This document shows, in pieces, positions 1,385 to 30,770 of a DNA stretch of 64,000 nt. Source of the DNA: Octopus sinensis (Eukaryota). The notes under the pieces were generated by a model. The model had not been told where the DNA came from. It did no database searches and worked only from the letters and a program-made list of their open reading frames with translations. The stretch is from the NCBI RefSeq assembly GCF_006345805.1, contig NC_043025.1, forward strand, positions 14,694,001 through 14,758,000, written 5' to 3'. A program made the position numbers and the translations under genes. Each line of letters begins with the position of its first letter. The stretch's first letter is position 1.

Positions 1385-1678
1385 ATAGGGCAAAGGGTAA
1401 AGCCCCTTCAGTCATCAATGAGGTACAAGTCCTGTCAAGATTGTTTAAGGAAGATGCATTCCATCCTCTCCTCTCCATGCCACTGATGTTATCCTAGGGA
1501 AAGGCAAAGGGGCCGATACAGCTTGGCACCAGTGACATCACAACTCAAGTCTACAGCTGAGTGAACTGGAGCAACGTGAAAATAAAGTGTCTTGCTCAAG
1601 AACACAACCCACAGCCCAGTCCGGGAATCGATCTCACTACGTCATGATTGTGAGCCCGACGCTTGAACCACTGAGCCA
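1385..1678 (-). mobile_element. SINE family D
   Basis: Shares the GTGTTCTTGAGCAAGACACTT...TTGCTCCAGTTCACTCAGCTG core with copies at 6560, 35172 and 46375. Confidence 0.75.
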
Positions 1679-1741
1679 AATCACACACACACACACTATC
1701 ACTTGTATTTTCCATCGTCAAACACAACACAACAAACCCAC

Positions 1742-2094
1742 CTTCATCAAACAGCGACGAGTCGTCCTTCGGATCCGAACCCCGATCCGGATAGTAGTCA
1801 TGCCGTGGGTCGGAGCCGTCCTTCGCCGCCGCCACCACGTCGTCGTCGTCGTCTTTGTCCTTGCTCGACCAAGTCATTTTATTTTCCTTCTTCAGTCGGC
1901 GCCGGGCATTGGCAAACCAGGTGGACACTTGGGTGAGGGTCATTTTGGTGATAATCGCCAGCATGATCTTCTCACCCTTGGTCGGGTAAGGGTTCTTGCG
2001 GTGCTCGTAGAGCCAGGCTTTGAGAGCGTTCGTTGTTTCCCGGGTGGCGTTTTTCCGCCGGTTGGTGGCGCTGTTGTAATCTAGCGCCTGGTAA
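1742..2094 (-). CDS. Irx: Iroquois-class TALE homeobox gene, homeodomain exon
   Basis: Encodes [75 protein letters not shown] plus an acidic tract (PYP TALE loop, WFAN helix 3, typical Iroquois homeodomain). Acceptor ttctgtctttttccag at 2095-2096; donor G|gtgggt at 1741-1740. Phase 2 in, phase 1 out. Confidence 0.97.
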
Positions 2095-2136
2095 CTGGAA
2101 AAAGACAGAAAGAACAAAATATATGTAGCTTGATTG

Positions 2137-2198
<62 letters not shown>

Positions 2199-22816: not shown

Positions 22817-22854
22817 TGTTTTACGTTTCGAGCCAAGGCTCTTCTTCAGAAACA
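22817..22854 (-). ncRNA. Minimal type I hammerhead ribozyme motif with canonical core
   Basis: TGTTT-CTGAAGA-A-GAGC cttg GCTC-GAAA-CG-TA-AAACA. Perfect 5-bp stem I, CUGANGA and GAAA core, palindromic ACGU stem III, UA cleavage site. Confidence 0.75.
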
Positions 22855-25586: not shown

Positions 25587-25624
25587 TCTTTTACGTTTCG
25601 AGCCTACGCTCTTCAACAGAAAGA
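25587..25624 (-). ncRNA. Minimal hammerhead-like motif (A6U core) in a Penelope-like repeat
   Basis: TCTTT-CTGTTGA-A-GAGC gtag GCTC-GAAA-CG-TA-AAAGA; stem I covaries with the copy at 22817. Confidence 0.6.
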
Positions 25625-26903: not shown

Positions 26904-26910
26904 TATATAT

Positions 26911-27240
26911 ATATATAAATTAGAAAAAAACCCACCTTTTATCAATTCAAAATGAACAATTAAATTACCCCATCTAGAAAATTACATATAATAGAAATAT
27001 TAAAATTAAAATAACAATGTCAATGATTAAGTAAATTGCAAAAAATAATAAAAACGTCTATAATTGGTATACATTTTTATTATTATTATTTTATTATTAT
27101 TATTATTATTTTGCAATTTACTTAATCATTGACATTGTTATTTTATTTTTAATATTTCTATTATATGTAATTTTCTAGATGGGGTAATTTAATTGTTCAT
27201 TTTGAATTGATAAAAGGTGGTTTTTTCTAATTTTTATATA
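26911..27240. repeat. Near-perfect fold-back palindrome (~140-bp arms)
   Basis: TTAGAAAAAAACCCACCTTTTATCAATTC...GTAAATTGCAAAA is mirrored at 27108-27240. Confidence 0.92.
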
Positions 27241-27370
27241 TATATTATTATATTGTGTGAAATTTGATTTAGTATTTCTAAATTGAATTTTTTTCCTTGT
27301 AAGTTTCGATTTTATTCCCTCAAATAATAATTATTATTATATATATATAAAATTAATCAAAGGGCATATA

Positions 27371-27405
<35 letters not shown>

Positions 27406-27957
27406 TCTGTTGTGTCTGGAGAGAGTCATTCCTTTTTAGTGCTTTATTATTTAACACACTCACTGGTTAAATTTCCACTCATTTCTTTATTTTCCTAAAA
27501 TTTTCGTTGCATCTTGCAACCTTTCCAATAGTCTTGACTCTGTCCGTTATTCACACTGTGTTCCCTTTTGCTCGTTTGTGCACATGTGTATGGGTCAGTG
27601 TGAGTGTGTGTGCCTATATATGCATGCATGTATGCATGTGTGTGTATGCATGTATATGTGTGTGTGTGTGTGTGTGTGCATATGTATATATTTATTTTTG
27701 TACATTTGTATGTATTCTGCATATTCATGTGTTTGTGCATTTTTATGTATGCATGTGTGTGTGTGTGTGTTATGCAACTATGTACCATGTTTGTATGTAT
27801 GGACGTGCATCTCCATATGTGTCCTTGTTTGAAGTAAAGTGTGTGTGTATATATGGTCATGTGTTTCAGTCTCCATTTGCGTATGTGTGCTTGTCTATTC
27901 ATATATCCTATGTACCTATTCATCTGTATGTCGATCTGTTTACTTTCATATCCATAT

Positions 27958-28328
27958 ACTCTTTACTCTTTTACTTGTTTCAGTCATTTGACTGCAGCCA
28001 TGCTGGAGCACCGCCTTTAGTCGAGCAAATCGACCCCGGGACTTATTCTTTGTAAGCCCAGTACTTATTCTATCGGTCTCTTTTTGCCGAACCGCTAAGT
28101 GACGGGGACGTAAACACACTAGCATCGGTTGTCAAGCAATGCTAGGGGGACAAACACATACACACACACACATAGGCTTCTTTCAGTTTCCATCTACCAA
28201 ATCCACTCATAAGGATTTGGTCGGCCTGAGGCTATAGTAGAAGACACTTGTCCAAGGTGCCACACAGTGGGACTGAACCCGGAACCATGTGGTTGGTAAA
28301 CAAGCTACTTACCACACAGCCACTCCTG
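27958..28328 (-). mobile_element. SINE family A
   Basis: Full-length match to family A. Confidence 0.9.
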
Positions 28329-28592
28329 TACATAGTTGCATAACACACACACACATATACAAACACACACATATACAAACACACACACACACACATATAG
28401 AGACACGGATCCACACATATGCTTACATACATGTGCATATACATATATAGACATACACCCACACACACACATACATACATCTATCTACATAACAGCCCAC
28501 TAACTATTCTACTCTACCTGTGTAAACTGTGGGTATTGGGGTACGTATATGCACATGTATATAAGCATATGGAAATGAAACTAAACAGATCA

Positions 28593-28992
28593 TAGGCGCA
28601 GGAGTGGGTGTGTGGTAAGTAGCTTGCTAACCAACCACATGGTTCCGAGTTCAGTCCCACTGCGTGGCACCTTGGGCAAGTGTCTTCTACTATAGCCTCG
28701 GGCCGACCAATGCCTTGTGAGTGGATATGGTAGATGGAAACTGAAAGAAGCCTGTCGTATATATGTATATATATATGTGTGTGTGTGTGTTTGTGTGTCT
28801 GCGTTTGTCCCCCTAGTATTGCTTGACAACCGATGCTGGTGTGTTTACGTCCCCGTCACTTGGCGGTTCGGCAAAAAGAGACCGATAGAATAAGTACTGG
28901 GCTTACAAAGAATAAGTCCCGGGGTCGATTTGCTCGACTAAAGGCGGTGCTCCAGCATGGCCGCAGTCAAATGACTGAAACAAGTAAAAGAA
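28593..28992 (+). mobile_element. SINE family A
   Basis: Full-length match, inverted relative to 27958-28328. Confidence 0.9.
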
Positions 28993-29344
28993 AGAAAAAA
29001 AAAGAAAAGATCAACATATACAGACGGATAGGTAGATAGGTTATAAGAACAGGCAAGCACACATACGCACCTGGAGACTGAAGCACATGACCATATGGAG
29101 ACACACAAGGACACATATGGAGACACACAAGGACACATATGGAGACACACGTCCATACATACAAACATGGTACATAGTTGCAAAACACACACATACATAA
29201 AAACACATAAACACATGAATATGCAGAATACATACATACAAATGTAAACACATACATATATACATATGCACACCCACACTGACCCCCACACGTGCACAAA
29301 CAAACAAAAAGGGAACACAGTTTAAATAACAGACAGAGTCAAGA

Positions 29345-29381
29345 CTATTGAAAAGGTTGCAAAATGCAATGAAAATTTTAG
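29345..29381 (+). ncRNA. Hammerhead-like motif with U3-A8 core (copy 1)
   Basis: CTA-TTGAAAA-G-GTTGC aaaat GCAAT-GAAA-AT-TT-TAG. Confidence 0.5.
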
Positions 29382-29563
29382 GAAAACTAAATAAGTTAAT
29401 GAGTGGAAACTTAACCAGTGAGTGTGTTAAATAATAAGGCACTAAAAGAGGATCACTCTCCCCAGACACAACAGAATATGTTTCAACACAATAACTCACA
29501 TAAAGAATCTTGCAAACCAAATCCAAAAACGAAATATGAATATATATCAGTAAAGCGTCAACA

Positions 29564-29601
29564 TCCATTGACAAGGTTGCAAAAGTAACGAAAATTTTGG
29601 A
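29564..29601 (+). ncRNA. Hammerhead-like motif with U3-A8 core (copy 2)
   Basis: TCCA-TTGACAA-G-GTTGC aaaa GTAAC-GAAA-AT-TT-TGGA; stem I covaries with copy 1. Confidence 0.55.
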
Positions 29602-29758
29602 AGAAAAGTATAAATAATTAATGAGTGGAAATGGAACCGGTGAGTGTGTTAGATGATAAGACAATATGACCCTCCCCAGATGCAATATAATTTGCTTAAA
29701 CACACAAATTCACATAAAGAATCTTGAAAACCAGATACAAAAATGAAGCGTATAATAT

Positions 29759-29812: not shown

Positions 29813-30050
29813 TATATTATATTAAATTAGAGATAAAACCACTATTAGGCAAATCAAACAATGAAAAATTAAGCCAATACATTAAATTAATTAATTTATA
29901 TTATTTTAAATATATATCAAAAATATATATCTTTTAATACTTTTGATATATATTTAAATATATAAATTAATTAATTTTATGTATTGGCTTAAGTTTTTCA
30001 TTGTTTGATTTGCCTAATAGTGGTTTTATCTCTAATTTAATATAATATAA
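29813..30050. repeat. Fold-back palindrome (~110-bp arms)
   Basis: TTAAATTAGAGATAAAACCACTATTAGGCAAATCAAAC is mirrored by GTTTGATTTGCCTAATAGTGGTTTTATCTCTAATTTAA. Confidence 0.92.
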
Positions 30051-30415: not shown

Positions 30416-30770
30416 AAATAATAGTTATCGCCATACTAATATGGCATTCTTATAAAAATAAGAAAAAAGCTGTCCGCTTATTAGCTCCATGAGGCCATCG
30501 CCTTAAGTTAGCTATTTGATACACAAACTGTATCCATATAACCTTCGAACAAGGGAGGTCAGTCGCTCCACACTACTTGACCCCGAAACGCGTCTGTAGC
30601 TGCGCGGTCAAGTAGTGGGAGCGACTGACCTCCTTGTTCGAAGGTTATATGGATACAGTTTGTGTATCAAATAGCTAACTTAAGGCGATGGCCTCATGGA
30701 GCTAATAAGCGGTCAGCTTTTTTCTTATTTTTATAAGAATGCCATATTAGTATGGCGATAACTATTATTT
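30416..30770. repeat. Fold-back palindrome (~165-bp arms) with GAAACGCGTC in the spacer
   Basis: Arms 30416-30582 and 30606-30770 are near-identical reverse complements. Confidence 0.93.

Follow-up and report, generated by a model that had tools for sequence, protein, structure and literature searches.

The window, the whole stretch of 64,000 nt of octopus DNA analysed here, contains two hammerhead-like motifs in the same orientation about 220 nt apart, each with a U3-A8 pair in its core. The question raised by this locus is whether the two units form one retrozyme-like RNA monomer, as an earlier note made from the letters alone had proposed, or have come to lie side by side in some other way. 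The motifs are very probably U3-A8 hammerheads of the terminal repeat of a Penelope-like retroelement (PLE), and their 220-nt spacing likely reflects two separate insertions of different subfamilies into one AT-rich site and not a retrozyme.

The two units and their surroundings

The features of the cluster are given in Table 1. The motif of unit 1 reads CTA TTGAAAA G GTTGC..GCAAT GAAA AT TT TAG, with U3 at 29348, N17 at 29378 and a predicted cut 3' of U29378. The motif of unit 2 reads TCCA TTGACAA G GTTGC..GTAAC GAAA AT TT TGGA, with U3 at 29568, N17 at 29597 and a predicted cut 3' of U29597. Both have the core YUGANRA with positions 3 and 8 paired, the GAAA and an NUH site, and in single-unit folds stems I and II form as predicted, weakly (z -1.5 to -2.0). 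The third, inverted copy of the earlier note (27495-27531, core TTGGAAA) is present as described. It lies in the inverted arm and carries A6G, which takes it outside the YUGANRA core.

The units had been read as copies of one tandem repeat. They are identical at 113/147 nt and are assigned to different subfamilies, so this reading does not stand. The G-U swaps said to preserve stem II are private C>T mutations in units 1 and 2, where the family mostly has C. The change of stem I from CTA/TAG to CCA/TGG is a true compensation at the subfamily level.

Table 1. Position and nature of the features of the PLE cluster in the window
Feature	Position	Strand	Remark
Inverted PLE arm, stopping ~54 nt before the 3' end (tail), resuming at ~28416-28562 past the inserted repeat	27402..27960	-	
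Interspersed repeat breaking up the inverted arm	27960..28330	+	
Second copy of that interspersed repeat, inverted, beside the left end of unit 1	28592..28999	-	
Unit 1: 5'-truncated direct PLE copy of subfamily F1A, 3' UTR and terminal pLTR segment	29000..29533	+	Sharp 3' end at 29533
Place of the family 5'-end pile-up (-198 from the 3' end); putative capped start, 13 nt before U3	29335..29347	+	
Minimal type-I hammerhead motif of unit 1: U3-A8, extra G at 9/10.1, AAUU stem III, private C11.1>U	29345..29381	+	
20-nt AT-rich spacer between units 1 and 2	29534..29553	.	Family 3' flanks also AT-rich
Unit 2: short copy from the more divergent subfamily F1B, reaching approximately the 3' end	29554..29747	+	
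Minimal hammerhead motif of F1B in unit 2: UUGACAA core, CCA/UGG stem I, private C>T in stem II	29564..29601	+	

Both parts of the inverted arm probably belong to the unit 1 insertion, which was split later by another repeat. This interspersed repeat is one that we take to be SINE-like. The spacer between the units is probably a remnant of the target site, and no target-site duplication is clearly readable at either insertion in the window. A tblastn search found no remnant of the PLE ORF in the window. The PLE copies here are probably dead passengers.

The neighbourhood also contains other elements. AT-rich fold-back elements at 26907-27245 and 29813-30049 flank the PLE cluster. A fold-back element at 30416-30770 has 139-nt arms that are 99% complementary, and the loop contains GAAACGCGTC, corresponding to the 3' half of a canonical type-I hammerhead without an intact 5' core. 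At 1599-2138 (- strand) there is a TALE homeobox exon (Homeobox_KN, E 5e-19), presumably Iroquois-like. If transcription of this exon extended to 29 kb, the RNA would be antisense to both units.

A dispersed family of Penelope-like elements

A search of the genome DNA (2.7 Gb) gave 5,800 first-look candidates, 40 of which were scored. These are 87-91% identical to unit 1; the best relatives of unit 2 are 81-87% identical to it. The family motif has 3,285 exact matches genome-wide and its reversed control has 0, so the motif itself is not a chance occurrence. With overlapping loci counted, a descriptor of the minimal hammerhead gave 72 matches in 744 kb, and none in any of five local shuffles.

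Copies of this family (F1) have a common, sharply defined right end with AT-rich sequence beyond it; their left ends vary. The longer copies (L061, L063, L065 and L118) have an upstream ORF in the same orientation, ~900 nt from the right end. The ORF contains the YVDD motif of a reverse transcriptase (RT). Its GIY-YIG domain passes the Pfam threshold (E 1.5e-6, L118), and its match to RVT_1 is weak (E 0.002-0.02). Fragments of the L061 ORF stayed below the Pfam cut-off, and GIY-YIG passed in the longer natural ORF. The translations of L118 and L149 have a C-x4-C-x2-C linker before GIY-YIG. Since the motif is 185 nt from the sharp 3' end and downstream of the RT/GIY-YIG ORF, it occupies the position of a PLE terminal repeat. 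Judged by sequence, units 1 and 2 are the 3' ends of two copies of this dispersed PLE family. Its anatomy is that of an EN+ PLE of the Neptune/Nematis type as PMC8557442 describes it, a clade to which it may belong.

The ends were analysed in the first 90 of 2,002 matches to the exact 3' 32-mer, all on one contig. An adjacent inverted arm is found in 60 of these 90 copies, and 43 of the 60 arms stop between -52 and -59. A small sample of 10-kb loci, 26 of F1 and 8 of a sister family, F3, contained no full-length copy that has a direct 5' pLTR (pLTR-ORF-pLTR). Next to one F3 copy, at L151:1160-2440 (- strand), a 427-aa open frame ends in a second, different GIY-YIG-like domain and is possibly another PLE family.

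Identity and covariation of the hammerhead

The motifs of units 1 and 2 are homologues of minimal type-I hammerheads with a compensatory U3-A8 pair, for which catalysis is predicted. Among the 25 ORF-bearing copies, 23 have an unpaired G between positions 9 and 10.1, and 18 have C11.1, which pairs with G10.1; unit 1 has a G-U pair there. Two sister families have a hammerhead at the homologous place in their 3' ends. The F2 motif is CTGAAGA G GTCAC..GTGAC GAAA and the F3 motif is CTGATGC G GTCAC..GTGAC GAAA. The ORFs of F3 and F1 are 60% identical.

Across F1, F2 and F3 (19 natural copies, selected by a core-matching pattern and representing only three or four lineages with few events), the 3-8 pair is U-A in 9, C-G in 9 and U-G in 1. 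Two pairs of stem II are altered on both sides, and in the same set 96.5% of the cells are paired, compared with 18-59% when the partners are slid. Read by eye, stem I and the pair 15.2-16.2 are also compensated. Since stem II is compensated and C3-G8 stands at the same position in the sister PLE families, the covariation of U3-A8 holds. The compensatory nature of this pair, which the earlier note had taken from the known core, is thus borne out by U-A in F1 and C-G in the two sister families.

The resemblance to a hammerhead could in principle have arisen by chance in an AT-rich repeat. No hammerhead family appeared in the best 150 of 194 rows of an Rfam scan of 20-40 kb, where only rows driven by simple repeats were seen, the folding z-scores are weak and the core of the copies is not conserved above the flank. 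However, the motif is placed where a pLTR hammerhead is expected, and two sister families have canonical C3-G8 hammerheads, with paired changes, at the homologous place. Chance is therefore scarcely credible, and the F1-F3 covariation appears to have largely refuted it.

The genomic copies of F1 decay neutrally, the core as fast as the flanks. The mismatch is 4.9% in the core and 5.4% in the flank of the 25 ORF-bearing copies, and 9.0% and 5.9% in 34 copies selected on their 3' end. A core no better kept than its flanks had been named as grounds for rejecting the hammerhead. This is what is seen within F1, but it does not extend to the comparison between families. F3 carries a C at position 9 (A9C), so a young family need not keep every core position.

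It is possible, but rather unlikely, that the motif is a hammerhead by descent which is no longer catalytic in this lineage and has been retained in the PLE leader for a structural or protein-binding role. Stem III is very weak, with a value of +2.2 kcal/mol for the palindromic AAUU duplex compared with -1.7 for ACGU, and stem I has 3 bp. Such a loss would also agree with the tolerance of A9C in F3, the lack of an excess of 5' ends at the cut site (see below) and results from the Anolis PLE, in which cleavage was dispensable for insertion in vitro (PMC11167929). The hammerhead of that element nevertheless does cleave in vitro (PMC11167929). In addition, families in which the flank alignment is rich in gaps still keep or compensate the 3-8 pair, G5, G12, GAAA and U16.1, as catalysis would require. 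A hammerhead with predicted catalysis is the preferred reading.

Several other hammerhead-like sequences were observed. F3 (L129-L156) is a young PLE family with long open frames of 695-1044 aa and 897 exact 3'-end matches, and stem III of its hammerhead is almost palindromic, with an A-A mismatch in the centre. Another repeat family has a canonical C3-G8 minimal hammerhead at window position 22849 (- strand), which reads CTGAAGA A GAGCC..GGCTC GAAA CG TA. At 25619 (- strand) an abundant repeat has a minimal hammerhead with U at position 6 (CUGUNGA). The A at this position is normally conserved in hammerheads. The CUGUNGA repeat is also found in L002, L012, L052, L055, L061, L112 and L115, and U6 is present in 19 of the 20 distinct contexts examined.

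Copy ends, RNA reads and the spacing of the units

If the units were retrozyme-like, a transcript through both would fold a dimeric hammerhead and release a 219-nt monomer that circularises and propagates. Both cores retain all catalytic positions, are co-oriented and have the AAUU palindrome in common. Weak dimer cleavage is possible for tandem minimal hammerheads (PMC4209133), and animal retrozymes have been reported as derivatives of PLE pLTRs (bioRxiv 2026.07.22.740005). The different subfamilies of the two units and the unfavourable AAUU duplex argue against such a monomer, as do the arrangement and the ends of the family copies.

Neighbouring motifs were compared in the first 100 of the 3,285 matches, which give 99 pairs. 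Eight of these pairs are on opposite strands within 104 nt. A single pair is on the same strand, at 928 nt; no same-strand pair is below 900 nt, and none of the 99 is near 220 nt. This spacing is thus no trait of the family. Occasional same-strand neighbours (L204, L005 and L008) do occur, as expected from a shared AT-rich target. The copy ends map to -198, -54 and -1, and the cut site lies at -155. The cut site (-150 to -158) shows no enrichment of 5' ends, with 13 in the 90 copies compared with ~9 expected (P 0.10). A cluster of 5' ends there was apparent in the first 30 copies and is not significant in the 90. A retrozyme monomer as the source of the 220-nt spacing is therefore not supported, since copies are dispersed or inverted head to head and their ends are off the cut site.

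Three RNA runs, of which ~6% of each was used and which have only a species label and may be from related species, contain reads of the family equally on both strands. The earlier note had predicted RNA ends at 29378 and 29597 and circular junctions. In what is a weak test, the reads cross the cut site at steady depth with no peak of starts or ends, and no joint at a cut site was listed. Reads at least 99% like the window number 10, 6 and 6 in the three runs. Since the strands are equal and the window-like reads few, the runs are uninformative on the window locus. Joints that go back 185-218 were considered as circle junctions and rejected; they are between homologous places of units 1 and 2, have letters in between and are off the cut sites. 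Recurrent loose read ends occur at window 29455 and 29534. They suggest that one more subfamily is transcribed, differing in its middle and having a common extension past the 3' end; no such subfamily was found among the genomic loci examined.

Taken with the copy ends and the spacing of the family, a retrozyme-like dimer is very improbable. The two units are unlikely to have been built as an RNA circle that releases itself, and their tandem arrangement in the window is probably incidental.

A pile-up of 5' ends and a possible mechanism

The 5' ends of direct copies fall at -196 to -198 in 14 of the 90 copies compared with 1.7 expected, and 10 copies extend further. Inverted arms also end there (14/60). 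U3 is at -185, 13 nt downstream of the pile-up. Unit 1 itself runs beyond this position, and the left end of unit 2 is at the equivalent position. Genome-wide, 854 copies have a non-C base just before -198, where the element has C. This base is G in 485 of the 854, or 57% compared with 21.5% expected, and 700 of those copies continue with templated sequence. Some of the extra Gs are also part of a target duplication or an inverted arm. The subfamily F1B has G at 4 of 7 non-templated starts. F3 has no pile-up of 5' ends near the hammerhead (0/30), so the signal is not general. A splice acceptor at -198 was ruled out because the sequences upstream are unrelated in 30 of the 30 copies examined.

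An extra 5' G in L1 and SVA has been attributed to copying of the cap (PMC3287187). The pile-up and the extra G suggest that a capped RNA starts 13 nt before the core and is copied uncleaved. The cap-type pile-up is a new by-product of this analysis and the one lead worth a bench test.

In active elements, the RNA would start inside the terminal segment and be capped, with the motif ~13 nt within the transcript. The RT would initiate internally at two sites ~54 nt apart. The hammerhead would cleave weakly, only with a second copy as a dimer and usually not before copying, so that most RNA would be reverse-transcribed uncut. The earlier note had proposed dimeric cleavage, and a need for dimers is reported for motifs of such shape (PMC4209133). 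The proposed mechanism follows the internal initiation and dispensable cleavage of PMC11167929, where uncut RNA is the main substrate in vitro and no reads of the Anolis PLE end at the hammerhead cut site, and the promoter within the pLTR (PMC2377424).

A bolder and rather doubtful version makes such capped RNA the dominant template and the ribozyme a 5' decapping switch. Dimer-dependent cleavage would remove the 44-nt capped leader and silence the element, and only uncut RNA would be copied. If this is true, the copying of uncut RNA is documented by hundreds of genomic copies that have a cap-derived G.

The short copies, including unit 2, might instead be a separate non-autonomous SINE-like element of ~200 nt that has its own promoter and borrows the PLE enzyme. 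The 5'-end pile-up with its extra G, seen also at the F1B starts, would agree with this, and the allele frequencies of short and ORF-bearing copies differ at three clear sites, none of them fixed. However, 7 to 8 of ~24 ORF-bearing copies have the short-copy allele at two sites, and internal RT initiation on the element's own transcript gives copies of equal length. A separate element is rather unlikely.

Comparison with known systems

The octopus family adds an example to a class of U3-A8 PLE hammerheads described in 2014. Natural C3-G8, U3-A8 and A9C variants coexist in sister families of one genome and are well suited to a comparison of activity. The genomic record, with its start just before the core, its extra G and its lack of cut-site ends, makes it testable whether cleavage helps or blocks retrotransposition. 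Lunse et al. reportedly described small hammerhead variants and dimers, and may already cover the U3-A8 variant.

The earlier note had presented U3-A8 as a variant that standard searches miss, but PLE hammerheads with this pair were published in 2014 (PMC4209133). That paper describes minimal PLE hammerheads, including the extra nucleotide, pairs on opposite strands and low dimer activity. It lists U3-A8 for Schistosoma mansoni (~1,300 matches) and Saccoglossus, and the AAUU palindrome with a UUU site for Crassostrea gigas. The title search, which had most subscription papers and the Repbase annotations outside its scope, found neither an octopus PLE hammerhead nor a cap signature at a PLE hammerhead, and the main text of PMC13282606 is without the word hammerhead.

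Like F1, the hammerheads in the available part of PMC4209133 have a short stem I, an unpaired nucleotide at 9/10.1, G10.1-C11.1 and a palindromic 15.2-16.2, and their copies are mostly solitary or on opposite strands. The alignment in that part has no cephalopod row, and U3-A8 and AAUU/UUU never occur together in one row. The extra nucleotide is G in F1 but H in the published consensus, where one row (Nasonia) has G.

The EN+ PLEs Neptune and Nematis, as far as described in PMC8557442, are like F1 in their C-terminal GIY-YIG, CX2-5CxxC linker, 5' truncation with an inverted arm, tail and AT-microsatellite targets. The F1 tail is ~54 nt whereas theirs is 30-40, and no direct-tandem full-length copy was seen in the F1 and F3 loci sampled.

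Animal non-LTR retrozymes are like the window units in having a type-I hammerhead that needs a second copy, a unit of a few hundred nt and an origin in PLEs. As presented in bioRxiv 2026.07.22.740005, retrozymes are tandem arrays of one unit, whereas the neighbours in the window are of different subfamilies and F1 is dispersed and linked to an ORF.

The Anolis Poseidon element PAc, in the available part of PMC11167929, resembles F1 in its two fixed 3' ends from internal RT starts, in the absence of RNA ends at the cut site and in the copying of uncut RNA. Unlike F1, it has a C3-G8 core that overlaps the start of the ORF. The same part of PMC11167929 does not note for PAc the signal seen in F1, a cap-type G at a start immediately upstream of the hammerhead.
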